In this document: positions 1,022 through 34,872 of the stretch, piece after piece
Layout: every line of letters begins with the position of its first letter
Position numbering within the stretch: the first letter of the stretch is position 1
Source: Actinomycetota bacterium
Lineage (GTDB): Bacteria > Actinomycetota > Geothermincolia > Geothermincolales > RBG-13-55-18
Assembly (NCBI GenBank): GCA_014360645.1
Contig: JACIXD010000016.1
Coordinates: forward strand, 12,395 to 76,394
Length of the DNA stretch: 64,000 bases
Direction of reading: 5' to 3'
Program-made: the position numbers and the translations under genes
The notes under the pieces: generated by a model
Told to the model about the DNA's origin: nothing
Databases searched by the model: none
Seen by the model: the letters and a program-made list of their open reading frames with translations, nothing else

Positions 1022-1023
1022 GC

Positions 1024-1052
1024 GGGGTCGTATCTTCAATCTTCGATGCCGG
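1024..1052 (+). repeat. REP1 copy (GGGGTCGTATCTTCAATCTTCGATGCCGG)
   Basis: First of more than 30 copies of a ~28-bp GC-rich repeat family seen on both strands in intergenic DNA. A degenerate second copy lies at 1090-1117. Confidence 0.7.
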
Positions 1053-1272
1053 TGACTTACGTGGCCACGTGCTGCCCAGCCGCCCGGGAGGTCCTCGATC
1101 TTCGATCAGGGTGACCCACAGGGGCAACCCCGAAGCTGCCGATCAGCCAACCCCCATGGCCTGGGCGGGGCCCCCATTGCGGCAGAACCCATTGCACCGT
1201 CGCTGCACGACAAAGGGAGAAACCATGTCGCTTCGAATAATTATCATGGGGAAAGGCAAAGGAGGTGGAAGA

Positions 1273-2697
1273 ATGGCGAAGGTTATCGGCCTGTCAGGTC
1301 CCTTCGGGGCTGGCTGCTCCACCGTAGCGGGGATATTAAAAGACGAGGGTTACCAGGTCATCAAGGCAAGCGCCTTCATCACGGAATGGGCCGAGCGGAA
1401 CGACGTTGGATTCGCGGTTCCAGAGGGGGACAGCACGGAAAGGAGGCATGCCCTACAGGTTGCCGGCAATATCCTCAGGATGCATGAAGGCAGTGATGCG
1501 ATCGCCAGGCTTGCGCTGGACTACATCAGAGAGCAAGAGGGGAGGAGCGAGCATCCCGAGAGCTTACGGTTCGTCATCGACAGCCTGAAAAACAGGGCGG
1601 AGACAGACTTTCTGCACGAACAACTGGGCGATCGCTTTACGGCGGTTTCCGTCTATTCGTCCGTCCAGAGCAGGGAGAAGAGGAGCTGCGTTGAAAACAG
1701 CTACAGCGGCAACCTGTGGCTGATGAAAAGAGATGACCGGAGAGACAGGGACGAATTCGGCTCCGACGTGGAATGGGGCCAGCAGGTCCTGCAGTGCGAC
1801 GTAGCCGCGGATATCTCCATCGATAACGATGAAAACGTCGAGACCAAAGAGGCGTGGGATTACAAGCTGGCCAACGCCGTTTCGCAATATGTCCTGAACG
1901 AGCATCCAGAGATCGATGCGAACACCCTTTTCATGTGGCGGGCGGAGCTGGAGGCGGCGAATTCCAGGTGCGGCAAGAGAAAGGTCGGAGCCTGCCTTGC
2001 AAAAGAAGAGGAGATAATCTCGGTAGGGTGGAACCGTGCTCCCGATGGCGTGGATGGATGTCTCGAGCACAAGGACTACAGGACCTGCTATCGCGACCAC
2101 CTTCGGTCGCAGAAGGAAAGAGATGATGCGGGCAGGGAGATAGACTGGGGCGATCTAGAGCTGGATGAATACGAGCGTGCGCTGATAAATGAGATCGATG
2201 ACGATGCGGAGAAGCGGAGGTATATCAGCCGCGTTGTCCTGGATGCCATCGACGGGTACTATTATGACTTCAAGACGTTGGAGGCGTGCAGGGCCCTACA
2301 TGCGGAGGAAGCAGCGATTCTTGCCGCTCTGGAGAGGGGAGCGGATATAAGGGAGGCCACCCTGTACACGACTACCTATCCTTGCATGGCCTGCGCCAAG
2401 AAGATCGCGCAACAGGGGATAAAGGAGGTCTATTTCATCGAGCCCTATCCCATCGAGGGGGCGAGGAAGCTTCTGGACGAAAAGGGCGTGAGGCAATACC
2501 GGTATCAGGGCTTGAGGTTGCGGTTTGCGCCACGCATACTTGATGACATGAGCGAAAGCACTAGGGGCAGGCTGGGAAGAATGAGCGGGAAGGATCTCGA
2601 GCCGGGGGAGGTGTATGACAGTGCATTTCAGATGTTCGCGCTGCAAAAAACAGTCAATGCAATACTCGGGCGGTGCGGGGAAGCTGATCTGCTATAA
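1273..2697 (+). CDS. AvcD-like P-loop-kinase / dCMP-deaminase fusion (putative anti-phage deoxycytidylate deaminase)
   Basis: The N-terminus MAKVIGLSGPFGAGCST resembles a CoaE/CMP-kinase P-loop, but the Walker-A Lys is replaced by Cys. The C-terminus has the dCMP-deaminase zinc motifs KRKVGACL…SVGWNRAPDG…C.E and HAEEAAILAA…PCMACAKKIAQQGIKEVYF. RBS GGAGGTGGAAGA precedes the ATG at 1273. An alternative start at 1225 (MSLRIII…) also has an RBS. Confidence 0.6.
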   Translation: MAKVIGLSGPFGAGCSTVAGILKDEGYQVIKASAFITEWAERNDVGFAVPEGDSTERRHALQVAGNILRMHEGSDAIARLALDYIREQEGRSEHPESLRFVIDSLKNRAETDFLHEQLGDRFTAVSVYSSVQSREKRSCVENSYSGNLWLMKRDDRRDRDEFGSDVEWGQQVLQCDVAADISIDNDENVETKEAWDYKLANAVSQYVLNEHPEIDANTLFMWRAELEAANSRCGKRKVGACLAKEEEIISVGWNRAPDGVDGCLEHKDYRTCYRDHLRSQKERDDAGREIDWGDLELDEYERALINEIDDDAEKRRYISRVVLDAIDGYYYDFKTLEACRALHAEEAAILAALERGADIREATLYTTTYPCMACAKKIAQQGIKEVYFIEPYPIEGARKLLDEKGVRQYRYQGLRLRFAPRILDDMSESTRGRLGRMSGKDLEPGEVYDSAFQMFALQKTVNAILGRCGEADLL

Positions 2698-2842
2698 CTG
2701 CGGGCTGGCCATAAGATGCAGCAATGCGGACAAGCTGTGGGATATATTGGGAAGCGATGACTTCGCCTTCATGGAGAGCTGGGAAAAGGACCTGATCCTG
2801 AGCGTGCACCAGGTCAATCACGGCACGAGCATGGCGGGATAG
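2615..2842 (+). CDS. Small Zn-ribbon protein (CxxC…CxxC) overlapping the 3' end of the deaminase gene
   Basis: RBS GGGGGAGGTG lies 4 nt before the ATG. The translation is MTVHFRCSRCKKQ…ICYNCGLAIRC. It overlaps the upstream gene by 83 nt in another frame. Confidence 0.4.
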   Translation: MTVHFRCSRCKKQSMQYSGGAGKLICYNCGLAIRCSNADKLWDILGSDDFAFMESWEKDLILSVHQVNHGTSMAG

Positions 2843-2882
2843 GCGCGCGGGGTGGCGGAACCCGTCCCCGTGGGGTCAGATC

Positions 2883-2911
2883 TTCGATCTTCAATGCCTG
2901 GAAAACGGGTG
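2883..2911 (+). repeat. REP1 copy
   Basis: GGGGTCAGATCTTCGATCTTCAATGCCTGG. Confidence 0.7.
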
Positions 2912-3033
2912 GGGATGGGAGCATGATTTCTGAATTCGGATTTCGTTAAGCGAGCCCCCGCCCCAGTGATTCCTTATCCTCTCTGAACTCATGGGCTTGA
3001 TAGGTTGACTGTATTTATCATTCAGGCGTCGTT

Positions 3034-3099
3034 GGGGTCATATCTTCATTCTTCGATCCCAGCCGTGGGTGGGGTCATATCTTCATTCTTCGATCCCGG
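3034..3099 (+). repeat. Two tandem REP1 copies
   Basis: GGGGTCATATCTTCATTCTTCGATCCC appears twice. Confidence 0.7.
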
Positions 3100-3215
3100 T
3101 AGTATTGGCCAAAGCGACTACATAAATCTCGAGTCATCGCCGAACTCCGGAAGCCCCTCTATTGGCCGCATCACATCAACACTTGTTGAATTCCGAAGAG
3201 CCCTGTATTGCCCGC

Positions 3216-3265
3216 AGCGAAGATCGAAGATACGACCCCATTAAGAAGATCGAAGATACGACCCC
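3216..3265 (-). repeat. Two tandem REP1 copies (reverse orientation)
   Basis: GAAGATCGAAGATACGACCCC appears twice. Confidence 0.7.
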
Positions 3266-3379
3266 ATTAACTATTGCATAACTTATCTATTTGTAATAAC
3301 ATAACGATATTATGCTGACGGTCGGAGAGTGGCGTAAGCGGTGGAGGAGCTATACAGCATCCATGCGAAACCGAACCCG

Positions 3380-3466
3380 GGGGTCACATCTTCGATCTTC
3401 GACTCCGGTAACTTATGGCCTGGTCAAGTTAAGTAAACTTGCATCGAAGATCGAAGATACGACCCC
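3380..3466. repeat. REPIN (inverted REP1 pair) immediately upstream of the RAYT gene
   Basis: REP1 (+) lies at 3380-3408 and REP1 (-) at 3442-3466, separated by a ~33-bp spacer. Confidence 0.65.
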
Positions 3467-3495
3467 ATCATTCCGCGGAGGTCAGTGCGAAAGCC

Positions 3496-4452
3496 ATGGC
3501 AAGACAGCTCAGAATCGAGTTCCCGGGCGCCCTATATCATGTCTTCTCCAGGGGCGTCGCCAAGCAGCCCATCTTCGAGTCGGATGAGGACCGCGCCAGG
3601 TTCCTGGACATCCTGGGCAAGGTGGTGGAGCGGCATAACTGGATAATCCACGCCTACTGCCTTATGGGGAACCACTACCACTTGCTGGTGGAGACGCCGG
3701 ATCCCAACCTCTCCCGGGGCATGCAGCTGCTGAACGGCGTCTACGCCCAGCGTCACAACGCCGAGCACGGACGGGTTGGCCATCTCTTCCAGGGGAGGTA
3801 CGGCAATACCCTCGTCGACAAGGAAGAGTACTTCCTCGTCGCGGCGTGCTACATCGTGCTCAACCCGGTGAGGGGAGGACTGGTGGAACACCCTTCCGCC
3901 TATCGCTGGAGCAGCTATAGAGCCACAGCTGGGGCTGAGAAGGCGCCGTCTTTCCTCCACATCAGCAGCATCCTGCTCTGCTTCGCGCCCGACCTGCACA
4001 TGGCGCAGAGGCTTTACCGTGAGTTCGTCGACGGAGGCATAGACGAGGAGACAGCACGGCGACTAGAGTCGGGCGGGGTCTGCGGCGGGGAGGTATTCCA
4101 GGCCTGGGTGGGCGAGATAGTCGAGGGGAGGAAACGGATACGGGAGATACCCCGCAGGCAGAGATACGTGGGGAGGCCGTCCCTGGCGCGTATACTCGAT
4201 GGGTGGGCGGACCAGCGGGAGAGGGACGAGAACATAGCGCGGGCGGTGCAGGACTTCGGGTACACCCAGAAGGAGGTCGCCGACCACCTAGGCCTTGCCC
4301 CCTCCACCGTGAGCGTCATCATGAAGAGGGTCGGGCAGGGATCGAGTGGTGCCCCGGGCGGGGTCAGATCTTCATCGGGCGGGGTCAGATCTTCATTCTT
4401 CGATCCCGGCAGTATTGAGCAGAGCGGGCAGAGCGATCTCGAATCCTATTGA
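3496..4452 (+). CDS. REP-associated tyrosine transposase (RAYT; IS200/IS605-like Y1 HUH transposase, TnpA_REP) with a C-terminal HTH
   Basis: The translation MARQLRIEFPGALYHVFSRG…MGNHYHLLVETP carries the HuH motif, and the catalytic Tyr region RWSSY follows. The C-terminus has an HTH (DFGYTQKEVADHLGLAPSTVSVIMKRV). The gene is flanked on both sides by REP1/REPIN copies. The last ~35 codons read through REP sequence. Confidence 0.75.
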   Translation: MARQLRIEFPGALYHVFSRGVAKQPIFESDEDRARFLDILGKVVERHNWIIHAYCLMGNHYHLLVETPDPNLSRGMQLLNGVYAQRHNAEHGRVGHLFQGRYGNTLVDKEEYFLVAACYIVLNPVRGGLVEHPSAYRWSSYRATAGAEKAPSFLHISSILLCFAPDLHMAQRLYREFVDGGIDEETARRLESGGVCGGEVFQAWVGEIVEGRKRIREIPRRQRYVGRPSLARILDGWADQRERDENIARAVQDFGYTQKEVADHLGLAPSTVSVIMKRVGQGSSGAPGGVRSSSGGVRSSFFDPGSIEQSGQSDLESY

Positions 4453-4479
4453 ATTCCGAAGCATCGGGCGGGGTCAGAT

Positions 4480-4696
4480 CTTCATTCTTCGATCCCGGCA
4501 GTATAGTCAGAGCGAGCACGTCGATTTCTAGCCATCTTTGCCCGCATCGAAGATCGAAGATGTGACCCCAGATTTCCTCATCGGGCGGGGTCAGATCTTC
4601 ATTCTTCGATCCCGGCAGTATAGTCAGAGCGAGCACGTCGATTTCTAGCCATCTTTGCCCGCATCGAAGATCGAAGATGTGACCCCAGATTGTTAA
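4480..4696. repeat. Two tandem copies (period 117 bp) of a REPIN: REP1(+) – 46-bp spacer – REP1(-)
   Basis: REP1(+) copies lie at 4480-4508 and 4597-4625; REP1(-) copies at 4555-4579 and 4672-4696. The two ~100-bp units are near-identical. A further REP1 and a half copy lie at 4370-4419. Confidence 0.75.
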
Positions 4697-5007
4697 TATG
4701 AATTCGGGAAGGCCTGTGCGATCAATGCAAGGGGATGATGGAAGCTGGATCGTGAAGCGAATGGCAAGGTCAACTTCCCGCCTCGCTGCCGGCTGATGCG
4801 CGAGCCCGCGGAAGCGGAGGAAGGCGGCTGGCGGGAAGCGGTGGTCTCTGCGGGTGATCACCTCAAGCGCGTCCTCGACGAGTACGTGGAGCTCGGCTTC
4901 GAGTGCCTGCTGGAGGAACTGGACGCCGAGGCCACCCCCGGATGCTCCGAGTGCTTCAAGTCCGGGGGAGAACGCGTCTACCGCGTCTATGTGCGGAGAA
5001 AGGGCGA

Positions 5008-5063
5008 AGGGGGTCGTATCTTCGATCTTCAATCGTAGGGGGGTCGTATCTTCAATCTTCAAT
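5008..5063 (+). repeat. Two tandem REP1 copies
   Basis: GGGGGTCGTATCTTCGATCTTCAATCG appears twice. Confidence 0.65.
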
Positions 5064-5172
5064 CCATCGAAGATGGTTGTGTCTTCAATCCAGGTAAGTG
5101 AGCATGCGCGGCAACATTGGTTGGGGAGCAAACATGGCGCTTCCGGGTTCTGCGGACCTCGCTGAGCCAAGC

Positions 5173-5244
5173 CATTCACATTGAAGAATGAAGATACGAC
5201 CCCAAAAGGAAGCTATTCACATTGAAGAATGAAGATACGACCCC
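5173..5244 (-). repeat. Two tandem REP1 copies (reverse) within a 40-bp tandem unit
   Basis: TTCACATTGAAGAATGAAGATACGACCCCAAAAG appears twice. Confidence 0.65.
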
Positions 5245-5415
5245 AAAAGTCGCGTGCCCGCTTGGGAACGCGGGGTCCTCCTCGCCGGGACGGGACCGCC
5301 CGGGAGCGGTCCCAGGGGTCGTATATTTAGCTCAGCCCTTTCCGTCCGGACCCCGGGAGCGCCGATAATGGTATTCCAATATATGGAAAGTAATTCAAGA
5401 TGCAAGACCTGACCC

Positions 5416-6207
5416 CTACATGAAGGCGCTGTAGACCATGGCGGCAATCCCCCCCAGGGCGAGGATGGCGGCGAAGGCGTATTGCAGGGCGGAGGAGCGC
5501 CTGATCTTCCGGGACAGCTCGGCCTCCATCTTGTGGCTGATGATGAAGGGGCTGTCCCCTTTGCCCACCGCCGCGACCTCGCCCGAGCGCTGGGCGGTCC
5601 CCAGGACGTAGACGGGCTGGCCGACGCGGATGAGCGATTCGGTTATCCTGTATCCCAGCACATCCTCGTAGTCGTCGTCCAGGGCGCTGAGGACGCTCTC
5701 CAGGATCGCTCCTCCCACTCCGGAGGATTCCAGGTAGTCGCGCCCGCGCCCGCGCCCCTCGTGGGTCCGGGTCTCGGCGATGTAGTCGGCGCCATCCGGG
5801 TAGACCAGGCACCGGCCGCTGGAATCGCTCACGTAGAAGGGGATCTCCTCCTTGCGGTCGTCGACGGTGTCCCAGAATTCGCTGGTCTTCATGGTGCCCG
5901 TCCGCTCGTCCCTCTCCCGGCGCTGCTTGCGGTGCTCCAGCTTGTAGCGGTAGTAGACGCAGGGGATCTGCGAGGTGGGGGAGAGCAGGGGCTCGTCCGC
6001 CTCCACCACCCCCACGAGCTCCACCCCGGCTCCGGGTGCGGAGAGCGCCATCTTGGACGCGTCGGCGGCGTTCACCGTGGGGGTCGCCTCCATGACCTCC
6101 AGCTTCTTCCTGCCGCGGTAGCCCAGGAAGGCGAGGACGACCCCGATGACGAGGGCGGCTCCGCCGATGCCCAGCACCACCCACTGTGAATTATCCACGG
6201 TCGCCAC
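5416..6207 (-). CDS. Membrane protein with N- and C-terminal TM helices (possibly GIDE-domain-like)
   Basis: Clean 263-aa ORF with hydrophobic termini (VVLGIGGAALVIGVVLAF… and …AFAAILALGGIAAMVYSAF). An SD overlaps the GTG start; an alternative GTG start lies 9 nt downstream. Confidence 0.5.
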   Translation of the reverse strand: MATVDNSQWVVLGIGGAALVIGVVLAFLGYRGRKKLEVMEATPTVNAADASKMALSAPGAGVELVGVVEADEPLLSPTSQIPCVYYRYKLEHRKQRRERDERTGTMKTSEFWDTVDDRKEEIPFYVSDSSGRCLVYPDGADYIAETRTHEGRGRGRDYLESSGVGGAILESVLSALDDDYEDVLGYRITESLIRVGQPVYVLGTAQRSGEVAAVGKGDSPFIISHKMEAELSRKIRRSSALQYAFAAILALGGIAAMVYSAFM

Positions 6208-6395
6208 CTCCTGCTCCGGCGTCGCCGGACGTCCGCATCGTCAAACAACCCGGCCCGGGGAGCTGCCGGGTCGGCCGGGGCGAATCGTGTCGGCGGAGCG
6301 AGGCCGGCCCTCATCTCCCTGGCCGTAGACCCTTCACTTCATGGCGTCGGATACGGCACCGGTCCTTTCGCGATGCGAACAGCCGCTTGCCAGAT

Positions 6396-8051
6396 TCAGG
6401 CTTCGCCCTTGGCTTCCTTCTGCCTGGCGATCTCCTCCTCGCGCAGGGCGCGGCGCAGGATCTTGCCCACCATGGTCTTGGGCAGCTCAGGCCGGAACTC
6501 CACCATGCGCGGCGCCTTGTAGGGGGCTAGGCGCTCGCGGCAGAAGGAGATGATCTCCTCTTCCGTGCACTCCTCGCCAGGCTTTAGCACGATGTACACC
6601 TTCACCGTCTCGCCGCGGTACTCGTCCGGGATGCCCACCGTCACCGCCTCTTGCACTTTGGGGTGTTCGTAGAGGACCTCGTCCACCTCGCGGGGATATA
6701 TATTAAACCCGCCGGCGATGATCATATCCTTCTTGCGGTCCACGATATAGAAATAGCCGTCCTCGTCCATGGTGGCGATGTCCCCGGTATACAGCCAGCC
6801 GTCCCGCAGGGTCTCCGCCGTCTCCTCCGGCTTCTCCCAATAGCCCTTCATCACCTGGGGTCCGCGGATGATCAGCTCGCCGGGCTCGTTTGGGCCCAGC
6901 TCCTGCTTCCCCGTCTCCACGTCGACGATCTTCGCCTCGGTATCCGGGAAGGGGATGCCGATGGAGCCCACCTTGCGCATGCCCATGATGGGGTTGGAGT
7001 GGGTCACCGGCGAGGCCTCTGAGAGCCCGTAACCCTCGCAGAAGATACCCCCGGAGATGCGGCTGAACTGCTTGATCACCTCCACGGGGATGGGGGCGGA
7101 CCCGGAGTTGCACAGCCTCAGCTTGTCCACGCCGTAGTTGAGCGCCTCGGGGTGGCTGAGGATGGCCACGTAGAGGGTGGGGACCCCGGGGAAGAAATTG
7201 GGGCGGTACTTCTGGATGGCCTGCAGCATCATGTTGATCTCGAACTGCGGGATGAGGACCATGGTCGCGGCGTTGGCGATGGCAGTGTTCATGCCCACCG
7301 TCTGTCCGTAGGAGTGGAAGAAGGGGATGACGTCCAGGTAGATGTCCTTGCCGCGCTCGGTGAACTCCTTCGCCCACATGGAGCACTGCATGGCGTTGGC
7401 CAGCAGGTTGCGGTGGGTGAGCATGACCCCCTTTGGCAGTCCGGTGGTGCCCCCGGTGTACTGCAGGGCCGCGAGGTCGTTCTCGGGGTCGATCTCCACC
7501 TCGGACACCTCCGGCTCGGCGTCGGCGATGACCTCCTTGAGGTAGTAGGTGGAGGAGTCTTTCTCTACGTTGGGGTTGACCGGCGTCTCCATGTAGTCGG
7601 TGATACTGGAGGCAATGATCCGCTTGAGGGGGGAGTTCCCCTTCACCGCCTGGATGCGCGCGTCGAAGAGGTCGAGGTAGATGAGGGTCTCCGATCCCGA
7701 GTCGTTGAACTCGTATTCCAGCTCCCGCTCAACGTGCAGGGGGCTGATGTTGACCACCGTCGCCCCCGCTTCCAGCACGCCGTAATAGGAGATGATGAAC
7801 TGGGGGCTGTTGGGGAGCATGATGGCCACGCGGTCGCCCTTCTGGACCCCCATCCCCCGCAGGGCGGTGGCAAAGCGGCGGACCTGGTCCCGGATCTGCC
7901 CGTAGGTGAGCTGCTGGTCGAAGAAGATAGTGGCCACGTGCTCGTCATACTTCACGCAGGTGAGTTCCAGTAACTGGTAGAGAGGTATGTTTGGGTAACG
8001 TATGGTCTCGGGGACGAAATAGTCGTAGTTCTTGAGCCAGACCTTTTCCAT
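6396..8051 (-). CDS. Long-chain-fatty-acid–CoA ligase (AMP-binding family)
   Basis: AMP-binding motifs YTGGTTGLPKGV and TGD…GGFNIYPRE…GK are present. RBS GAAGGAGGGGG precedes the ATG. Confidence 0.85.
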   Translation of the reverse strand: MEKVWLKNYDYFVPETIRYPNIPLYQLLELTCVKYDEHVATIFFDQQLTYGQIRDQVRRFATALRGMGVQKGDRVAIMLPNSPQFIISYYGVLEAGATVVNISPLHVERELEYEFNDSGSETLIYLDLFDARIQAVKGNSPLKRIIASSITDYMETPVNPNVEKDSSTYYLKEVIADAEPEVSEVEIDPENDLAALQYTGGTTGLPKGVMLTHRNLLANAMQCSMWAKEFTERGKDIYLDVIPFFHSYGQTVGMNTAIANAATMVLIPQFEINMMLQAIQKYRPNFFPGVPTLYVAILSHPEALNYGVDKLRLCNSGSAPIPVEVIKQFSRISGGIFCEGYGLSEASPVTHSNPIMGMRKVGSIGIPFPDTEAKIVDVETGKQELGPNEPGELIIRGPQVMKGYWEKPEETAETLRDGWLYTGDIATMDEDGYFYIVDRKKDMIIAGGFNIYPREVDEVLYEHPKVQEAVTVGIPDEYRGETVKVYIVLKPGEECTEEEIISFCRERLAPYKAPRMVEFRPELPKTMVGKILRRALREEEIARQKEAKGEA

Positions 8052-8334
8052 ACAGGACCCCCTCCTTCTTGCGAGCGGGCGGACGCCCGCGCTCTACGGA
8101 CCATCCTGGTTCCCTCTCCGCTGCGCGGCGAGCGGAAGTCAGGCGAGCGCACGGCGCGGAAGAGTGCGCTGGCGCTGCCTTTCCGGGCTCATTTCCCCGT
8201 TCCTTTCTAGCCCCGCGCCGGGATGCGAGCATCTCCGGGGATGCGGGGCGCTGCTCTATCGCGAAACCTGACAGCCGACTTGTTAACCATTTTGCATTCG
8301 ACGACCAACCAAGTCAACCACCATGGGGTCGTGT

Positions 8335-8446
8335 CTTCAATCTTCGATTCACTAACACCATGGGGTCGTTCAATGAACTGGGGGTCAGATCTTCAATCTT
8401 CGATTCAATAAGGGGAACTGGAGGTCGGAACTGGGGGTCGGAACTA
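8335..8446 (+). repeat. REP1 copies and fragments plus GGGGGTCGGAACT x2 mini-repeats
   Basis: REP1 copies at 8335-8360 and 8381-8407, with partial copies between them. Confidence 0.6.
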
Positions 8447-8593
8447 GGGGTCAGATCTTCAATCTTCGATTCAATAGCGATTGGTGGTGTTAGTGGCGGG
8501 GTTTTCATTCAGAATATGCCTATGGCAGGTTCCACTAGCTGACCCCACAAGCGGTTGAGACCTGCCGGCATCGAAGATCGAAGATGTGACCCC
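8447..8593 (+). mobile_element. MITE-like element (~147 bp) bounded by inverted REP1 sequences; left copy
   Basis: REP1(+) at 8447-8473, a 96-bp spacer, then REP1(-) at 8570-8593. It is about 95% identical to the reverse complement of 11026-11172. Confidence 0.7.
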
Positions 8594-9038
8594 ATTATCT
8601 GTACCGAGCCCCGGCTACCTCTCCGACCTCATAGGCGAGTGGGAGCGCGAGCACGGGGCGGTGCTGCCGCGCCGGGGCACCGTGCACGACCTCGGGCCCT
8701 CGCTTACCCACAAGGCGGCCATCTGCCGCAAGGCCGTGCTGGAGGGCAAGCAGACCCCGGAGATCGCCCGGGAGACCCACCACAGCCCGGCCAGCGTGGA
8801 CCGCTACCTGCTGGACCTGGAGCGGGTGGCCTACGCCATGCTCAAGCACGGCATGAGCCTGGGCGAGATATGCTTCACCACCCAGATGTCCGAGGGTCTG
8901 GTCCGCCAGTATGCCCAGCTCGTTACCGAACTCGGGCTCTCGGAATCAAGCCCTTACCGAAAGGAGGTGGGCGCCAAACTTCCCATTGATTCAAGGTCCG
9001 CAACGACCAATGCCCAGCGGACCCAGCATACCCGATAG
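8586..9038 (+). CDS. Hypothetical DNA-binding protein with two HTH-like motifs (possibly a truncated IS-associated gene)
   Basis: The ORF begins inside the MITE-like element, so the true start is uncertain. The motifs QTPEIARETHHSPASVDRYL and MSLGEICFTTQMSEGLVRQY resemble resolvase/IS-OrfA-type HTHs. Confidence 0.35.
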   Translation: MTPLSVPSPGYLSDLIGEWEREHGAVLPRRGTVHDLGPSLTHKAAICRKAVLEGKQTPEIARETHHSPASVDRYLLDLERVAYAMLKHGMSLGEICFTTQMSEGLVRQYAQLVTELGLSESSPYRKEVGAKLPIDSRSATTNAQRTQHTR

Positions 9039-9091
9039 GATGGATGTCATATGACACAGCTATAGATACGACCCCAACGCTGACCTGCCGG

Positions 9092-9115
9092 CATCGAAGA
9101 TCGAAGATGTGACCC
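9092..9115 (-). repeat. REP1 half-site with flanking sequence matching the right arm of the MITE-like element
   Basis: CTGACCTGCCGGCATCGAAGATCGAAGATGTGACCC. Confidence 0.6.
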
Positions 9116-9123
9116 AATACAAA

Positions 9124-9156
9124 ATTGAATTATAATTGAATTATAATTGAATTATA
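9124..9156 (+). promoter_or_regulatory. AT-rich 11-bp direct repeats (TTGAATTATAA x3) upstream of the ligase gene
   Basis: Island of under 15% GC in a 65% GC genome, about 80 bp upstream of the 9233 start. Likely a promoter or binding site. Confidence 0.4.
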
Positions 9157-9232
9157 ATAATATAATGGTCGCGGATGCGATAGTTATCAGCGGGCTGCAG
9201 GATCGGGCTTGAGTTCGAGGGAGGGACATTCC

Positions 9233-11020
9233 ATGACCGATTTCCGGCATTTCTACGATGACATACTCGCGTCTTTCGCCAGGTACCCCGCTATCATCCA
9301 TGGAGATGAGGTCATCACCTACAGGGAGCTGGATGAGCGCACCAACCGCCTCGCCCACGCCATGCTGGAACTGGGGATTAAACGCGACCACAACGTGGGC
9401 ATAGCGGAATATAACACCCCCGCGTTCCTGGAGGTGGTGGCTGCCGCCTTCAAGGTGACCGCGCGTGCCGTGACCCTGAACTTCAAGTTCAAGGAATGGG
9501 AACTCAAGCATGTCATAGAGGACGCAGGCATGGAGACGGTGTTCTTCAACGAGGACATAGCCGACCGCATGGTGAACCTGCGCCCTGAGCTGCCGGGGGT
9601 GAAGAACTACGTCATCATCGGCGAGCGCCGTGTCGAGGGCATGCTCAACTATTCCGAGATCGTACGGGGTAGGCCGTCCACTGCCCCCACCCCGCCATGG
9701 CCAGAGTTCAGCGGCGACGACGTGGTGGTGCTCATGTACACCGGGGGCACAACCGGGTATCCGAAAGGAGTGATCTACACCCATGACCAGGTGTTAAGCG
9801 CGCCACTCGAGGCGATGATCCGCAATTTCGCGGGCGGACTGAGAGACCTCTCCAAGGCACCACCCCAGGTCTTCAAGGGCATCGAGAAGACCCTGAGAAT
9901 CCCCGGCGCCGCGCGCACCCTCCCTTGGCTGCTCTCGCGTGAGGCCACCCGCAGGGCGCTGATAGTCGTGGGCAAGAAGGCAGGCCCCTTCATCATCAAG
10001 GCCCCGGACCCCCTGATCAGGGCGATACTCTTCCTCAACGCCAGGCTCACGGGAGGGAAGGTGAGGATGCTGTTGGCCAGCCCCATGATGCACGCCTGGG
10101 CCTACAACCACGCCCTCATCGGCATGATCGGAGGTTTCACCAGCATCCTCCTGCCCTCCAAGAGCTTCGAGGTCTCGGAGATGATCTCGGCCATAGAGAA
10201 GCACCGCGCCAACGTGCTGGTGGCGGTGGGCGACGGGCAGTGCCGGCCCTTTGCCGATGAGCTCGACCGCGCCGCCGCCGAGGGGAAGCGTTACGACCTG
10301 GGTTCTCTCCTGGTTGTGCTCTCCAGCGGCATGGCACTCTCCGTAGACGTGAAGCGAAGGCTGCTCGAGCACCTCCCACAGCTCATCATCCTGGACGTGC
10401 TGGCCTCAACGGAGGGGCATTACATCTCCGTCACTCCCTACACCGCCGCGGACCGTGAGCTGGAGAAGACCGTCTTCAGGGTGAGCGACATGGTCAAGGT
10501 CATAACCGAGGATGGGAGGGAGGCCCGGCCGGGCGAGATCGGGGAGGTGGCGGTAGCCCGCGAGCACCAGGGCTCCTCGGGATATTACGGCGACGCCGAG
10601 AAGACGGCGCGCACCTACCGCAAGGTGGGCGGCAAGACCTACATCTTCACCGGCGACATGGCCTCAGTGGACGAGAAAGGACACATACACCTCATAGGCA
10701 GGGGATCCGGCTGTATCAACACTGGGGGCGAGAAGGTGTTCCCTGAGGAGGTGGAGGAGGTGCTCAACCGCCACCCCGCGGTGGAGCTCTCGGGTGTCAC
10801 CAGCGTTCCCCATCCCCGCTGGGGAGAGGCGGTCACGGCGGTGATACAGTTAAAGCCGGGGGAACAGGCCGACGAGGAGGAGATAAAGGCGTGGTGCAAA
10901 GAGTATCTGGCTGATTACAAGGCCCCCAAATACGTGCTCTTCGTGGACGAGCTGCCGCGCCTGATCACCGGCAAGGTACATTACCGCGAGATCAAGCAGT
11001 TGGTACAGGAGAAATTCTAG
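9233..11020 (+). CDS. AMP-dependent synthetase/ligase (acyl-CoA synthetase family)
   Basis: Motifs YTGGTTGYPKGV and TGD…GSGCINTGGEKV…GK are present. RBS GGAGGGA lies 6 nt before the ATG at 9233. An alternative ATG lies at 9209. Confidence 0.8.
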   Translation: MTDFRHFYDDILASFARYPAIIHGDEVITYRELDERTNRLAHAMLELGIKRDHNVGIAEYNTPAFLEVVAAAFKVTARAVTLNFKFKEWELKHVIEDAGMETVFFNEDIADRMVNLRPELPGVKNYVIIGERRVEGMLNYSEIVRGRPSTAPTPPWPEFSGDDVVVLMYTGGTTGYPKGVIYTHDQVLSAPLEAMIRNFAGGLRDLSKAPPQVFKGIEKTLRIPGAARTLPWLLSREATRRALIVVGKKAGPFIIKAPDPLIRAILFLNARLTGGKVRMLLASPMMHAWAYNHALIGMIGGFTSILLPSKSFEVSEMISAIEKHRANVLVAVGDGQCRPFADELDRAAAEGKRYDLGSLLVVLSSGMALSVDVKRRLLEHLPQLIILDVLASTEGHYISVTPYTAADRELEKTVFRVSDMVKVITEDGREARPGEIGEVAVAREHQGSSGYYGDAEKTARTYRKVGGKTYIFTGDMASVDEKGHIHLIGRGSGCINTGGEKVFPEEVEEVLNRHPAVELSGVTSVPHPRWGEAVTAVIQLKPGEQADEEEIKAWCKEYLADYKAPKYVLFVDELPRLITGKVHYREIKQLVQEKF

Positions 11021-11025
11021 GCGTT

Positions 11026-11172
11026 GGGGTCACATCTTCGATCTTCGATGCCGGCAGGTCTCAACCGCTTGTGGGGTCAGCTAGTGGATCCTGCCATGGG
11101 CATATTCTAAATGAAAACCCCGCCACTAACACCAACAAACGCTATCGAATCGAAGATTGAAGATCTGACCCC
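11026..11172 (-). mobile_element. MITE-like element, inverted copy of 8447-8593
   Basis: Its reverse complement aligns over ~147 bp to the left copy. Together they bracket the 2.4-kb segment 8594-11025. Confidence 0.7.
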
Positions 11173-11175
11173 CAA

Positions 11176-11427
11176 TTAGGGATTGAGGGGGCGGCGCCCG
11201 GCCGTGACCCGGATGGCGTTCTGGGCGCAGGCGGACAGACACTCCCCGCAGCCGTCGCAGAACGACACGAAGCGGGGGACGATGCGGTATCGGGGGTTCT
11301 CCCCGTGCCGGTCGTGGTCTTTTTCCCTGGGTACGGCGAGGAAGACACCGTGCGGGCAAGCCTCCTGGCAGCGGCGGCCACAGGCCTCGGCATCGCAGTC
11401 GGCGACCCTGACGCGGTAACGGGGCAT
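11176..11427 (-). CDS. Ferredoxin, 2x[4Fe-4S]
   Basis: The translation MPRYRVRVADCDAEACGRRCQEACP…CDGCGECLSACAQNAI shows two cluster motifs. RBS GGAGGTGG precedes the ATG. There is a 2-nt gap to the upstream gene. Confidence 0.7.
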   Translation of the reverse strand: MPRYRVRVADCDAEACGRRCQEACPHGVFLAVPREKDHDRHGENPRYRIVPRFVSFCDGCGECLSACAQNAIRVTAGRRPLNP

Positions 11428-11429
11428 CG

Positions 11430-12245
11430 TTACCACCTCCCCGCCGCCGCAGGAACGGTCTCTCGTCCCGCCAGGGACAGGGCTCCGCGCGGGCAGACGC
11501 CGCGGCACAGGCCGCATCCGAAGCAGTCCCCCGCGTGCACGTGCACCCGTCCAGCCTCGGGATCGTAGTGCAGGGCTCCGAAGGCACAGCGGGAGACGCA
11601 GACGGGTTCCTCGCAATAGCGGCATAGCAAGCGATCCACCACGCAGACCTCGTGGCCCTTGTAGATAGCCGCCTCTACGTTATTGGCCCAGCGCTGCTTG
11701 AGCGAGGTGCAGTAGCGCGCGTCGCAGTTGCAGATGCAGATGGGGAAGGGGACCTTGGCGTAAAGCACCTGGTGGAAATGGCCACGCTCCTCGCTGCGCC
11801 GTACCACTTCCTTGGCCTCTTCCAGGGTGATCTCCTCCATGGGTCCCTGGGGCATGTGGCGCCTCTGCAGTTCCTTCACCGGACCGAAGTTGAGACATAC
11901 CATGTCGTCCCGGTTCCCCACCAACTTGCGGCAGGCGCAGGGCAGGAGCACGAAATCCCGGGCGTATTCCAGCAGCGCGAGGGAATCCTCGAGGGAGACC
12001 ACCTGCCCGCCGTGCTCGTTGGGGGCCATGCGGTTGATGGCCGCCTTCACCGCCTTGCCGATCACCGGCAGGTTGACCAGCCGGGTCATGCGGGAGGTGA
12101 AGTCGATGTAGTAATCGATCCCCCAGCCCGCCACCTTCTCCAGGGTCTTCACGCGCTGGGGATCCTCCATCATCTTCTCGGAGAAGTTCTCGGGATTGAG
12201 GTACCAGCGGTTGCCCTGGCCGTGTTTCTCGCAGAACTCGCACAT
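11430..12245 (-). CDS. Fe-S cluster protein with a C-terminal 4Fe-4S dicluster domain
   Basis: N-terminus MCEFCEKHGQGNRWY…; C-terminus CVSRCAFGAL…CFGCGLCRGVCP. RBS GGAGGCG is present. Confidence 0.55.
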   Translation of the reverse strand: MCEFCEKHGQGNRWYLNPENFSEKMMEDPQRVKTLEKVAGWGIDYYIDFTSRMTRLVNLPVIGKAVKAAINRMAPNEHGGQVVSLEDSLALLEYARDFVLLPCACRKLVGNRDDMVCLNFGPVKELQRRHMPQGPMEEITLEEAKEVVRRSEERGHFHQVLYAKVPFPICICNCDARYCTSLKQRWANNVEAAIYKGHEVCVVDRLLCRYCEEPVCVSRCAFGALHYDPEAGRVHVHAGDCFGCGLCRGVCPRGALSLAGRETVPAAAGRW

Positions 12246-12313
12246 GAAGACGCCTCCAACACCGAAGATGCCCGCCGGGAGCTTTTATATTTTAACACAA
12301 CGGATCGCGTAAC

Positions 12314-12493
12314 GGGGTCAGATCTTCGATCTACGATACCAATATATGGGTAATATTCGTGATTTAAACGGCCAACGGCTACCTGATCGCATTGAAAAAG
12401 TAAGGGGTCAGATCTTCGATCTACGATACCAATATATGGGTAATATTCGTGATTTAAACGGCCAACGCTACCTGATCACATGATCACATTGAA
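12314..12493 (+). repeat. Two tandem copies of a 90-bp unit (REP1 plus an AT-rich segment CCAATATATGGGTAATATTCGTGATTTAAACGG)
   Basis: REP1 copies at 12314-12340 and 12404-12430. The units are near-identical. Confidence 0.7.
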
Positions 12494-12744
12494 AGAGAGG
12501 ATCGGGATCTCATTGAAAACGAAGATCCAAAATAATGCCTATGGCACTTTATCTATAATAACGAGGTCAAATTCTCGACGACGGCGACTTATGCTTTAGC
12601 AACTGAGCTGTGGGTACCCGTCTTATCCCCAACCCCGAGCGCAGCGCCTGTGCCTTGTAAGTAAAGCAAAATTGATGCCAGACCCCCGTTTGGCGTTGGC
12701 GCTGGCCGCGTCGATGTTCGGAGAGAACTCGATTGGCAGACAAT

Positions 12745-12944
12745 GCATCGATGATCGAAGATCGAAGATCTGACCCCATCGGGGAATGCATCGATGATCG
12801 AAGATTGAAGATCTGACCCCATCGATCATCTGACCCCATCGGGGAATGCATCGATGATCGAAGATCGAAGATCTGACCCCATCGAGGCCCCATCGAGGCC
12901 CATCGAGGCGCGTCAATGTGTCGAAGATCGAAGATCTGACCCCA
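12745..12944 (-). repeat. Array of four REP1 copies (reverse) within ~50-bp tandem units
   Basis: ATCGATGATCGAAGATCGAAGATCTGACCCCATCG is repeated. The last copy forms the 3' end of the downstream dehydrogenase ORF. Confidence 0.7.
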
Positions 12945-14106
12945 TGGTTACCATGCGCCGCAGCAGGGGAGGGGGGAGGAACGCGGGGCTCTTCGTCTCT
13001 TCGTACAGGCGCGAGGCCTCCGCGAGCACCGTGTCCAGCCCCAGGTTGTCGGCCATCTCCAGCTGCCCCATGGGCAGGTTGAACCCCAGGCGGGAGGCCC
13101 TGTCCACGTCCTCAGCTTCCGCTACCCCAGCTTCCACCACCCTTATCGCCTCCAGGATGCCGGGAAGCAAGAAGCGCATCAGGAGACCCTGGGAGTCACC
13201 TCTCTCCCCGGGGCCGCGCCTGGGCGCGGGGAGCATGTAGCTCTCCCTCTTCCCGCTTGCGTAGTCGTAGAAGCCGCGGCCGCTCTTGCGTCCCAGCAGG
13301 CCCGCGGCCACCATGCGCCGCAGCAGGGGAGGGGGTAGGAAACTGGGGTCGCGCGTGTCCTCGTAGATGGCCAAGGCGGCGCTGAAAGCCACCTCCAGTC
13401 CGGCGTTATCCATGATCTGCAACGGGCCTACCCCGGCCTCGAAGCCTCCCGTGGAACGGTCTATCTCCTCTGGCGTCGCCAGGCCCTCGTCCACCATGCG
13501 CACCGCCTCTATGGAGGAGGGGATATTCACGCGGTTGGCCACGAAACCGGCGTGGTCCTTCTGTACCAACACCGTCTCCTTACCCAGGCTGCGCGCCCAG
13601 GCGTCGGCGGATTCCATGGTCTCCTGCGAGGTGAGTAGGCCACGGATGATCTCCACCAGGCGCATGAGCGGCACCGGCCCGAAGAAATGCACCCCAACCA
13701 CCCGCTCCGGCCGGGAGGTCGCGGCGGCCAGGGAGGAGATGGGGATGGCCGAGGTGTTGGTGCCCAGGAGGGCATGCGGAGGACAGATGCCGTCCAGGAC
13801 GCGGAAGACCTCCACCTTGAGGGAGAGGCTCTCGGGCACCGCCTCGATGACCAGGTCCGCCCTGGAAGCCTCGCCCAGTTCGGTGGTGGTGGAGATGAGC
13901 TCCAGGGCGCGACCCGCACGCTCCTCATCCACCCTTCCCTTGGACACTAGCTTCCGCAGCGAGCTTCGGATGTTTTCCGTTCCCGCCCGCAGGGCCTCTT
14001 CGCTGACGTCGCAGAGAGTCACGCGGTAACCGGCCAACGCCGAGACCTGGGCGATGCCGTGTCCCATGAAGCCCGCTCCCACCACGAAGACGTTCTCTAT
14101 GCCCAT
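12913..14106 (-). CDS. 3-hydroxyacyl-CoA dehydrogenase (NAD-binding domain plus duplicated 3HCDH C-terminal domain)
   Basis: N-terminus MGIENVFVVGAGFMGHGIAQ, with RBS GGGAGGAGG. The C-terminal domain repeats (DPSFLPPPLLRRMVAAGLLGRKSGRGFYDY, then SPAFLPPPLLRRMVTMGSDLRSSTH). The second copy ends inside REP1. Confidence 0.8.
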   Translation of the reverse strand: MGIENVFVVGAGFMGHGIAQVSALAGYRVTLCDVSEEALRAGTENIRSSLRKLVSKGRVDEERAGRALELISTTTELGEASRADLVIEAVPESLSLKVEVFRVLDGICPPHALLGTNTSAIPISSLAAATSRPERVVGVHFFGPVPLMRLVEIIRGLLTSQETMESADAWARSLGKETVLVQKDHAGFVANRVNIPSSIEAVRMVDEGLATPEEIDRSTGGFEAGVGPLQIMDNAGLEVAFSAALAIYEDTRDPSFLPPPLLRRMVAAGLLGRKSGRGFYDYASGKRESYMLPAPRRGPGERGDSQGLLMRFLLPGILEAIRVVEAGVAEAEDVDRASRLGFNLPMGQLEMADNLGLDTVLAEASRLYEETKSPAFLPPPLLRRMVTMGSDLRSSTH

Positions 14107-15168: not shown

Positions 15169-15257
15169 GGGAGCACGAGACTGGTGTCTCCCGCGGGCTG
15201 CAAACCCGTTGGCCGGCTCTGAAAAAGTCGGGGTGGGTTCGATCCCCACTGCTCCCC
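15169..15257 (+). tRNA. tRNA-like gene with a class-II-like long variable arm and anticodon loop CUGCAAA (GCA)
   Basis: Acceptor stem GGGAGCA/TGCTCCC (7 bp). T arm GTGGG-TTCGATC-CCCAC. D arm GAGAC-TGGT-GTCTC (5-bp stem, 4-nt loop). Anticodon stem GCGGG/CCCGT with loop CTGCAAA. The variable arm is ~22 nt (CCGGC…GTCGG). The discriminator is C and CCA is not encoded. Confidence 0.5.
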
Positions 15258-19264: not shown

Positions 19265-19722
19265 CTCCCTTTACCTGACCCTGCTGCCGATAAGTGGTAC
19301 GTTCGCCGGAACCTCCATCCATCACCTCCTCACGGGGGCCGGATACCCTCCAGGACGTTGTCCGCCGTGCATCCCTCCTGGGGTGCGGCCGATGCCTTAC
19401 TATTTCCCGACTCAAGCCCCTTTTGGTCGTGTCCGCCGTCCGGGTCCTTGCGGGTAAAGACGACGGTGCCGTGACGTTTGGAAGAAAAATTCCTCACGGA
19501 GACTCCAATCGCGTTACGTCTCATCCCTCTACCCGAGCCGGCGGGCTGGCCGCACGTGGCCGTTTGCCGGAACAGATGCCCGTGTCCAGGGGCCGTGCCA
19601 ACAGATGCTTCGTAGCGTCGGGGCGCGCCCTCCTCCGCGCCCCCGAGCCGGCGCATAAAGCTTGTATTAAGCGAGCGTTAATATTCTATTACTTTTGCCG
19701 CCGTAAATAAATGGGGTCAGCC

Positions 19723-19817
19723 CCGGACATGGGACATTGTCGTTGAACATCTTTATCCAGGGTCAGCCCCGGACATGGGACATTGTCGTTGAACATCTTC
19801 ATCCAGCGCCACCGGAC
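19723..19817 (+). repeat. Two tandem copies of a 48-bp unit containing REP2 (GGGGTCAGCCCCGGACATGGGACA)
   Basis: Read directly. The copies lie in the 750-nt region upstream of the DUF35-thiolase operon. Confidence 0.75.
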
Positions 19818-19987
19818 ATCCGGTCCAAGCGTCTTTTCACCCCGTCCTGGAGAGACTCGTGAAACATACCGAGAGATATCGGTGCCGTGATCTTCCGGGG
19901 TTCCGGGCGACGGGTGATCGGCCGCTGCCCGCCGAGGAAGCATCTCGCTGACGGCGGAAAGATAGCGCGAGGGAAAGCGCTGCTTTT

Positions 19988-20011
19988 TGTCCCATGTCCG
20001 GGGCTGACCCC
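19988..20011 (-). repeat. REP2 copy (reverse), inverted partner of 19723-19817
   Basis: TGTCCCATGTCCGGGGCTGACCCC. Confidence 0.7.
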
Positions 20012-31373: not shown

Positions 31374-31598
31374 CGCCTTCACCACCTGTCCGATGGCGTC
31401 CGTTCTTCATCTTTCCGGCTCGCCACACGGGGCAGGGGCGGGAGGCGCGGGTGCGTGTGTGGAGACCGGAGCCGTCCCCTTTCCTCCGCACGGTCCCGTC
31501 CGCGGCCCTCGAGACGCACCCCATGGAATTTGCCCTATCCACCCACGGGGAGTAACCTGTAAGCAAGTATGTACAAGGAGACTGCCGTGAGGGTCAGC

Positions 31599-31623
31599 CC
31601 CGGACATGGGACAAAGGCGGGAG
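31599..31623 (+). repeat. REP2 copy
   Basis: GAGGGTCAGCCCCGGACATGGGACA. Confidence 0.7.
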
Positions 31624-34772: not shown

Positions 34773-34872
34773 GCCCGTACCGCTCCCGCCCGGATGCGGT
34801 CAGGCCCTGAAGGACCCGTTCATTTATAATAGGGGAGGAAACCGGGAGACGGGAGAGGACGGGGGGTGTCGC

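Follow-up and report, generated by a model that had tools for sequence, protein, structure and literature searches.

To which class of mobile system does a transposase gene belong when it is embedded in a dense field of one short repeat? The question is raised by a 64-kb stretch of contig JACIXD010000016.1 from an Actinomycetota bacterium (the window; positions given without a contig label are positions within it), where an open reading frame (ORF) at 3496-4452, encoding a Y1/HUH tyrosine transposase-like protein, is surrounded by copies of a repeat termed REP1. The initial annotation read the locus as a REPIN-RAYT system, with a REP-associated tyrosine transposase (RAYT) of group 2/3; the evidence presented here fits another class. 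TIRtrons are RAYT-like genes that have long terminal inverted repeats (TIRs) on both sides, and their products are the proteins named TIRYTs (Di Nocera 2013, BMC Genomics 14:522, PMC3733652); their TIRs share the motif GGGGWSAS and in some genomes form moderately abundant families of singles, dimers and clusters (PMC3733652). TnpA-Y1 subclass 2.1 takes in 20 of the 26 published TIRYTs (Quentin 2018, BMC Genomics 19:475, PMC6006769). It is the largest RAYT-like subclass, present in approximately 15% of surveyed strains, its members carry a C-terminal extension of HTH_23, HTH_28 or Bac_DnaA_C-like type, and neither automatic nor manual search revealed REP-like sequences near its genes (PMC6006769). 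The locus is probably (at roughly 75%) a TIRtron, in which a TIRYT of subclass 2.1 lies amid amplified derivatives of its own TIR, REP1: the protein has the HUH and tyrosine residues and a C-terminal helix-turn-helix (HTH), and the gene is flanked by non-hairpin TIRs with a GGGGWSAS head.

Results

The gene encodes a Y1/HUH protein with a C-terminal helix-turn-helix

The translated ORF matched Pfam Y1_Tnp with 42.3 bits (cut-off 23), and its C-terminus matched HTH_23 at residues 247-283 (23.8 bits, E 3.9e-5, slightly below the Pfam cut-off of 24.6) and HTH_28 (E 0.0018). In an alignment of 25 diverse homologs (50-75% identity), H60, H62, Y119, N123, P124 and V125 were invariant and the HTH was conserved intact, confirming the initial description of a Y1 HUH transposase with an HYH motif and a C-terminal HTH, and showing that neither the HUH nor the tyrosine residues are missing from 3496-4452. 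The features of the gene are as follows.

3496-4452, + strand: TIRYT gene, 318 aa, Y1/HUH tyrosine transposase-like with a C-terminal HTH (Pfam, homologs, AlphaFold model)
3673-3681, + strand: HUH motif, codons H60-Y61-H62 (25-sequence alignment)
3850-3852, + strand: catalytic tyrosine Y119 in YIVLNPV (25-sequence alignment)
4213-4338, + strand: C-terminal HTH, about aa 240-281 (HTH_23 match, predicted helices)
4355-4452, + strand: REP1-encoded C-terminal tail of the ORF, containing REP1 copies at 4360 (partial) and 4381 (full)

A phmmer search of the PDB with the window protein gave no match, and solved relatives were reached only by way of a profile and a structure prediction. The profile built from the homolog alignment matched E. 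coli TnpAREP (4ER8; 16% identity to the window protein) with an E value of 0.021, placing HYH opposite HMH and YIVLNPV opposite YIYINPV. For the AlphaFold model (mean pLDDT 81), the best structural match was likewise TnpAREP (4er8_A, E 5.8e-8, TM 0.75), followed by the TnpA proteins of ISDra2 and IS608 (Foldseek E 1e-5 to 1e-4), and the putative HTH was modelled as three helices (240-253, 258-265 and 269-280; pLDDT 80-93). The invariant HUH and tyrosine residues, the alignment to TnpAREP and the fold match together indicate that the catalytic apparatus is intact, and the invariance of these residues across 25 diverse homologs argues for retained catalysis. Against the curated RAYT model (NCBIfam NF047646, equivalog) the protein scored 71 bits, under the cut-off of 80.

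Full-length homologs number at least 8000 in databases, from many phyla, and are typically about 285 aa long and 50-55% identical; their names vary between 'transposase', 'REP-associated tyrosine transposase' and 'RayT' (NCBI, JGI), and a protein identical to the window TIRYT has been entered from an NCBI Actinobacteria metagenome-assembled genome (MAG). Homologs stop about 5-12 aa past the HTH. The window protein is about 32 residues longer (it would be about 285 aa without this tail), as REP1 copies make up its final ~32 codons (4355-4452) and have displaced the ancestral stop codon; residues 282-318 are predicted to be disordered in the AlphaFold model. There is no second Y1 gene in the 64-kb window.

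REP1 is an oriented, non-palindromic motif confined to the first 13 kb

Scanning the window with the REP1 pattern GGGGTCRNATCTTCRWTCTTCRA (up to two mismatches) gave 30 matches, all between 1024 and 12943, compared with 0.00 in 100 shuffles, and an nhmmer profile built from 241 distinct copies found 31 full copies and five partial heads, all inside 1023-12945, in line with the initial claim of more than 30 copies in the first 13 kb. Across the remaining 51 kb (13-64 kb) this profile gave noise-level matches only, none of them significant. A head-only pattern, GGGGYCRNRTCTT, matched 31 times in the window against 0 expected by chance.

REP1 is about 24-25 nt long and reads (A)T-GGGGTC-RN-ATCTTCR-WTCTTCR-RT, with the GGGGTC head as its outer end. 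A logo drawn from 335 distinct copies in 140 sequences showed sharp bounds, two direct heptamers and no dyad, with nothing conserved outside. GGGGWSAS was matched exactly by 18 of the 30 copies, which read GGGGTCAG or GGGGTCAC; one further copy, TGGGTCAC, departs from it at the first base only, and the rest read GGGGTCGT or GGGGTCAT, with mismatches at positions 7-8. Single copies have no common hairpin (six folded differently, z -2.7 to +0.24), and the GTAG or CGTC tag is absent from REP1.

The GC content of the first 14 kb is approximately 0.55-0.64, compared with 0.62-0.70 elsewhere in the window, partly because of the repeats themselves, and base composition is a weak hint of an island. 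Scans of 1-14 kb found nine intrinsic terminators against 8.5 in shuffles, and five sigma-70 promoters against four; these counts are no better than shuffles, so a function of the REP1 doublets as canonical terminators is unsupported, and the terminator and promoter readings were both rejected.

REP1-type repeats bound related TIRYT genes

In the window, the TIRYT gene is bracketed by REP1(+) at 3380 and REP1(-) at 4547, with more copies on either side. Compact TIRtrons with REP1-type or related TIRs were identified in L094, L072, L092, L042, L025, L024 and L026 (L-numbers label comparison contigs or stretches outside the window). The compared TIRtrons are 911-1122 bp long; in these seven loci the left inverted repeat (IR-L) lies 23-215 nt upstream of the TIRYT start (23-100 nt for the four loci with REP1-type TIRs), and the right inverted repeat (IR-R) lies over the stop codon or at most 10 nt from it. 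In L094 (289 aa, 48% identity), IR-L is 23 nt upstream and IR-R encodes the last codons and the stop; in L092 and L042 (330 aa, 35-38% identity), IR-L is 35 nt upstream and IR-R again lies over the stop; the L072 protein (328 aa) carries a Bac_DnaA_C domain (39.7 bits). The REP1 motif is thus common to TIRYTs just 35-48% identical to the window protein, and in 12 or more independent loci a REP1-type TIR stands at a fixed distance on each side of a Y1 gene. More distant TIRtrons retain the head and a TCTT-type heptamer, as in L025 (Bipolaricaulota, GGGGTCAGGTCTTTACTTTTGA), L026 (Sulfurivermis, GGGGTCAGGTCTTGACAT) and L024 (Candidatus (Ca.) Solincola sediminis, GGTGCCGTGTCTTGATTCT...). The closest homologs (62-75% identity; L020, L022, L148, L150 and L152) are all flanked by variants of GGGGYCGTNTCTTC...; the origin of L152, Ca. 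Solincola quzhuomuensis, suggests that the window organism is related to that lineage. No target-site duplication (TSD) was seen at the TIRtron ends (eight TIRtrons checked), where only T/A...A was frequent. These comparisons show REP1 to be the cognate TIR of TIRYT genes, as judged from sequence.

Among species-representative genomes, the exact REP1 pattern was present in 19 stretches, whose MAGs carry labels such as Actinomycetota, Bacillota, Poribacteria, Entotheonella and WOR-3; the variants in these stretches (GC 42-66%) are lineage-specific and mostly form heads-outward pairs. More than 120 metagenome stretches contain the exact pattern, and none was found in viral contigs. Comparable densities were seen in other contigs from this lineage (L117, with 21 copies in 14 kb, and L070, with 16 in 10 kb), while the rest of the window and the syntenic L074 are sparse in REP1. 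The field around the gene is therefore a local concentration over a lower background.

Arrangement of the REP1 copies and neighbouring genes

The copies lie in the window as solo repeats (located by the pattern scan), doublets and arrays, together with partial heads located by the nhmmer profile.

1024-1046, + strand: solo REP1, 3 nt past the stop of a polysaccharide-synthesis gene (41-1021)
2872-2894, + strand: solo REP1
3034-3265: double-TIR miniature element, with REP1(+) at 3034 and 3071, a conserved core of about 90 nt, and REP1(-) at 3217 and 3243
3380-3466: heads-outward REP1 doublet (3380+/3444-), 87 nt, directly upstream of the TIRYT gene
4359-4374: partial REP1 head
4470-4686: two REP1 doublets (4470+/4547- and 4587+/4664-) in tandem with a 117-nt period
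5010-5244: nested convergent array, with REP1(+) at 5010 and 5040 and REP1(-) at 5181 and 5222
5315-5324: partial REP1 head
5404-5416, - strand: partial, variant head GGGGTCAGGTCTTgcatcttgaa, abutting the stop of a GIDE-domain gene (5416-6207, - strand)
8325-8593: REP1 group, with REP1(+) at 8325, 8381 and 8447 and REP1(-) at 8571; 8447-8593 is a 148-nt unit
9064-9116, - strand: REP1(-) at 9094 and a head-only remnant (9064-9076)
11026-11172: second, inverted copy of the 148-nt unit, 6 nt past the stop of an AMP-binding gene (9209-11020)
12314-12943: convergent array, with REP1(+) at 12314 and 12404 and REP1(-) at 12755, 12798, 12858 and 12921
12828-12839: partial REP1 head

The REP1 at 1024 is conserved in L127 at the orthologous site, the L117 counterpart of the array at 5010-5244 has one (+) and two (-) copies, and the REP1(-) at 12921 overlaps the 3' end of a 3-hydroxyacyl-CoA dehydrogenase gene. 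The variant head GGGGTCAGGTCTTgcatcttgaa resembles the TIRs of the more distant TIRYTs of L025 and L026. Symmetric nested arrays of 2+2 and 3+3 copies were seen. An integron/attC interpretation of the region was rejected: genes lie in both orientations, REP1 lacks RYYYAAC/GTTRRRY core sites, and no integrase-type match was obtained for the ten ORFs from the first 14 kb that were scanned against Pfam.

Heads-outward pairs form discrete units

Among 372 public REP1 copies, 150 neighbouring pairs lay within 300 nt of each other, of which 74 were convergent with heads outward (+-), 40 were ++, 33 were -- and three were divergent (-+). The heads-outward doublets are 87-230 nt long and fold as long single-stranded DNA (ssDNA) hairpins (-21 to -30 kcal/mol, z -3.6 to -7). 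The inverted pair noted initially upstream of the gene is the 87-nt doublet 3380(+)/3444(-), whose hairpin has an energy of -26.4 kcal/mol (z -7.0), and the two tandem 117-bp units downstream were recovered as 4462-4574 and 4579-4691, which are 100% identical (-21.5 kcal/mol, z -3.6). The 46-bp spacer ascribed to these units is obtained approximately when longer arms are counted, and is 54 nt between the 23-nt cores. The description of REP1 copies as often forming inverted doublets around a cognate Y1/HUH gene stands.

The 148-nt unit at 8447-8593 is repeated in inverted orientation at 11026-11172 with 95% identity; homology between the two begins and ends precisely at the GGGGTC heads, and the flanks of both copies have no target duplication. 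A double-TIR family of about 200 nt with a conserved core of about 90 nt occurs at four or more sites, comprising window 3024-3275, its L117 ortholog and three places in L070. In this lineage the TIR therefore occurs as solo copies, as tandem arrays and as head-bounded doublet units without TSD.

REP1 neighbourhoods differ between close relatives

Tandem REP1 copies bring their flanks along, indicating that arrays grow by tandem duplication. Relatives at approximately 93% nucleotide identity (L117, L058, L070, L127 and L074) have differing copy numbers and arrangements: at 12755-12943 the window has four (-) copies and L058 one, L058 has two (+) copies in the array, and L074 holds a REP1-containing insert where the window has a degenerate remnant only. 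In comparisons with these genomes, a REP1 copy lies no more than a few nucleotides from almost every end of a synteny block. These breaks fit repeat-mediated rearrangement, with metagenome mis-assembly at repeats as an alternative.

Individual gene-level differences were also recorded. A DUF1670/HTH gene (8586-9038, + strand) is 5'-truncated, with profile positions 122-220 left; the truncation lies 12 nt from the head of the REP1(-) at 8571-8593, the gene runs on upstream in L056, and its 3' boundary in both the window and L056 is a head-only REP1 remnant, AGATACGACCCC. At 5246-6396, the window has the GIDE-domain gene between conserved flanks where L117 has 3.9 kb instead (L117:8221-12137), which encode a URO-D-type methyltransferase and a corrinoid protein that binds B12; REP1 copies lie at the junctions. 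A segment of 145 nt at a gene 3' end, next to REP1, in L034 (2788-2934) and L110 (4896-5042) is missing in L130, the deletion lying between two TGAAGGG 7-mers. Within a deaminase-domain gene (1069-2697, 542 aa), window 1547-2334 (787 nt) is missing from the L070 copy (L070:3116-3125); a domain may have been deleted or inserted here as a polymorphism.

REP2 is a related repeat family

A second family, REP2, is represented in the window by five copies, starting at 19713, 19759, 19988(-), 31306 and 31590. The initial annotation had the number right and three of the coordinates (true starts 19713, 19759 and 31590) about 10 nt off.

19713-20011: REP2 cluster, with (+) copies at 19713 and 19759 and a (-) copy at 19988 that abuts the stop of an aldehyde:ferredoxin oxidoreductase gene
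31306-31329 and 31590-31613, + strand: REP2 copies

The REP2 consensus is (A)T-GGGGTCAG-CCCC-GGACATG-GGACA, and all three exact copies start GGGGTCAG. REP2 had been described as unrelated to REP1, a view that the comparison of the two contradicts: both have the head (A)TGGGGTCAG and the same plan, in which the head ATGGGGTCAG is followed by two tandem heptamers (GGACATG GGACA in REP2). This common head and plan indicate that REP2 is a putative TIRYT-type end related to REP1. REP2 is found alongside REP1 in many contigs of the lineage, and a sister family, GGGGTCAGCCC-TCCACAT-TCCACAT, occurs in L010 and L134. The copy at 31306 appears to have an identical counterpart at the corresponding position in L074. 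No REP2-flanked TIRYT homolog was found among the close homolog loci examined, and with no second Y1 gene in the window, the initial statement that a cognate RAYT for REP2 is not seen there holds.

The 98%-identical contigs L134 and L010 differ by the presence or absence of 145 nt (L134:2739-2885 versus L010:~4687). The extra DNA in L134 consists of a REP2-like heads-outward doublet (GGGGTCAGCCCTCCACATTCCACAT ... inverted copy) and 56 nt, with the 7-mer GGGGTCA on both sides, and the difference is either an insertion at a head-like target or a deletion between two heads. The REP2-like heptamers TCCACAT and TTGACAT (L010, L134 and L097) contain the DnaA-box (TTATCCACA) core, and a Bac_DnaA_C domain is present in some TIRYTs, such as that of L072; the published DnaA-box comparison took in the 8-nt TIR head only.

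Other observations

A tRNA gene at 15169-15257 (+ strand), preceded by a very AT-rich stretch of about 60 nt, matches Rfam tRNA-Sec with 59.2 bits, yet has the anticodon GCA (Cys) in the loop CTGCAAA and is called Cys by ARAGORN. It resembles the selC* tRNA-Cys class (Mukai 2017, PMC5389517), with a discriminator that is apparently C and not U73; the reported hosts of this class are Firmicutes, Thermodesulfobacteria, Nitrospirae and Proteobacteria, and Actinomycetota are not among them (PMC5389517). A 171-nt insertion in L055 (2266-2438), relative to L121 (~223-233) and also L108, is flanked by direct repeats some 10 nt long (AACGCTACRA) and contains inverted repeats; it is a TSD-making miniature element unrelated to REP1. 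In L020, a 27-nt tandem array (about nine copies, CCGCAAGGCTCCGATGCCGGCAAGCTC) and a purine-rich repeat block were observed at 411-679 and 5639-5956, close to the 75%-identical TIRYT homolog.

Discussion

How the TIRYT would act on REP1

By analogy with IS608 TnpA and TnpAREP, the Y1 domain would cut and reseal one DNA strand at the head or beside it, with Y119 forming a covalent 5'-phosphotyrosine. The two inverted TIRs of a unit would pair within a single strand, and the resulting stem may replace the hairpin that is carried in each classical REP or IS200 end, with the HTH possibly contributing double-strand or heptamer binding. The doublets would be non-autonomous elements mobilised in trans, which slippage and recombination might then expand to arrays and turn into rearrangement junctions.

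Several observations weigh against this account. A filled-site/empty-site search over all comparison DNA yielded no clean REP1 insertion polymorphism, and transposition is accordingly only inferred; it returned as candidates an indel of a REP2-like doublet, a deletion adjoining a REP1 and an unrelated element, and the alignments of 12480-12960 with L058 and of 34720-34900 with L074 are too diverged to set insertion boundaries. Very recent copies are mostly tandem duplications, which need no transposase. The TIRYT ortholog of L117 (87% identical, reverse strand) has an in-frame stop at codon 242, before the HTH, and its contig still has 21 REP1 copies despite this premature stop. The window protein itself carries a repeat-derived tail and its activity is a prediction, the proposed cleavage site and HTH role are drawn from analogy, and the literature searched contains no report of a biochemically tested TIRYT. 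Finally, proteins that differ in their C-terminal domains share one TIR, which makes heptamer reading by the HTH less likely and suggests that the Y1 core, rather than the HTH, may read most of the REP1 motif.

Alternative explanations

A more ambitious version of the TIRtron reading is that the TIRYT is active and that the GGGGTC(A) head is both the element end and the preferred target, so that copies would insert beside existing copies, local hopping would build dense, nested, heads-outward fields, and REP1-bounded segments would be shuffled between relatives. The segments shuffled would include ordinary metabolic genes, in loose analogy to ssDNA-hairpin cassette systems. The synteny block ends at REP1, the GGGGTCA-bounded 145-nt indel and the 2+2 and 3+3 arrays hint at this, and mis-assembly or lost alignability in arrays could give the same breakpoint pattern; we regard the proposal as tentative and rather doubtful.

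It is unlikely, somewhat more so than local hopping, that the repeats were spread mainly by host processes (replication slippage, unequal or ectopic recombination, gene conversion) at a recombination hot spot, and that the TIRYT is inactive or has been domesticated to bind DNA, perhaps as a regulator or nucleoid factor with REP1 as its binding sites. Such processes would account for tandem copies that keep their flanks and for identical copies being in tandem, for the synteny breaks at REP1 and the DUF1670 gene truncated at one, for the persistence of repeats beside the L117 ortholog with its premature stop, and for the restriction of all window copies to 12 kb, and the conserved, intact HTH also suits this view. 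They do not readily explain why the HUH and tyrosine residues are invariant in the 25 diverse homologs, why discrete units that end exactly at the heads are found apart from each other and inverted, or why the double-TIR family is at four or more sites, and the 74:3 bias of convergent over divergent pairs is that expected of a mobile TIR-spacer-TIR unit.

The REPIN-RAYT assignment made initially, that is, a group 2/3 RAYT with palindromic REPs and merely large units, is improbable. The gene is flanked by its own repeats, inverted doublets of which make long hairpins, many family members bear RAYT names in NCBI and JGI, and the nearest solved structure is E. coli TnpAREP. However, single REP1 copies have neither a conserved hairpin nor the tag of REPs, the protein falls below the curated RAYT cut-off (71 against 80 bits) with only 16% identity to 4ER8 and has an extra C-terminal region of about 140 aa with an HTH, the motif crosses phyla where REPINs are lineage-specific, and the literature sets the class apart as TIRYT or subclass 2.1.

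Least credible is that REP1 doublets are ordinary miniature inverted-repeat transposable elements moved by a DDE transposase encoded elsewhere, with the Y1 gene a bystander: their heads-outward TIR-spacer-TIR architecture of 87-230 nt would suit such elements, and a TIR starting with GGGG is reminiscent of Tn3-family ends, but TSDs are absent from the ends of the 148-nt unit and of the TIRtrons, the same TIR stands at a fixed distance from Y1 genes in the 12 or more independent loci, with IR-R over the stop, and no DDE domain turned up when 10 ORFs from the first 14 kb were scanned against Pfam.

Significance

The locus is a new and unusually rich member of a known, neglected class, and it overturns nothing. 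The TIRYT class has been little studied, and subclass 2.1 is reported as the largest RAYT-like subclass. Supplied here are a defined 24-nt end (head and two heptamers) that very divergent enzymes have in common, non-autonomous units that are discrete, have exact ends and lack a target duplication, and closely related genomes with differing copy numbers. This is material for testing how an HUH enzyme handles inverted-repeat, non-hairpin ends, and for testing present mobility. Were local hopping true, it would be the first natural system in which the activity and target choice of subclass 2.1 are read from population polymorphism, and it would explain the cross-phylum conservation of the 24-nt TIR.

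Comparison with known systems

With the TnpA proteins of IS200/IS605 elements (IS608, ISDra2), the window TIRYT shares the predicted HUH/Tyr ssDNA transposase fold, and the elements share the lack of a TSD. IS200/IS605 ends are different subterminal hairpins, whereas the ends here are inverted copies of one non-hairpin motif; IS200/IS605 elements often carry tnpB, and their TnpA is approximately 130-150 aa long without an HTH, compared with 318 aa with an HTH here.

The resemblance to REPIN-RAYT systems (PMC3116915, PMC3479197) lies in a Y1/HUH enzyme flanked by its own short repeats, with YI..NPV and the predicted fold in common, and in inverted doublets that form long hairpins and act as non-autonomous units (PMC3116915); REP1 likewise occurs mainly as inverted doublets with a long hairpin. 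REPs are small palindromes with a GTAG tag, genome-wide, lineage-specific and vertically inherited, whereas REP1 is a non-palindrome with a GGGGTC head, locally clustered in the window and found across phyla, and the window TIRYT has an additional putative DNA-binding domain compared with RAYTs.

Like subclass 2.1 proteins (subgroup 2.1.2; PMC6006769), the window TIRYT is among the longest Y1 proteins, and its family has a patchy, cross-phylum distribution; unlike the genes of that survey, it lies inside a dense field of TIR-derived repeats. As in published TIRtrons (PMC3733652), a Y1 protein longer than RAYTs is encoded between TIRs that sometimes lie over the gene ends. The locus differs from them in its host, an uncultured Actinomycetota lineage near Ca. 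Solincola, in a conserved TIR of 24 nt with two tandem heptamers in place of an 8-nt motif, in the sharing of this TIR by 35-48%-identical TIRYTs and by MAGs labelled as several phyla, in nested arrays that are symmetric (2+2, 3+3), in families of doublets whose cores are conserved, and in its extreme density, with 31 copies in 12 kb and none in the next 51 kb.

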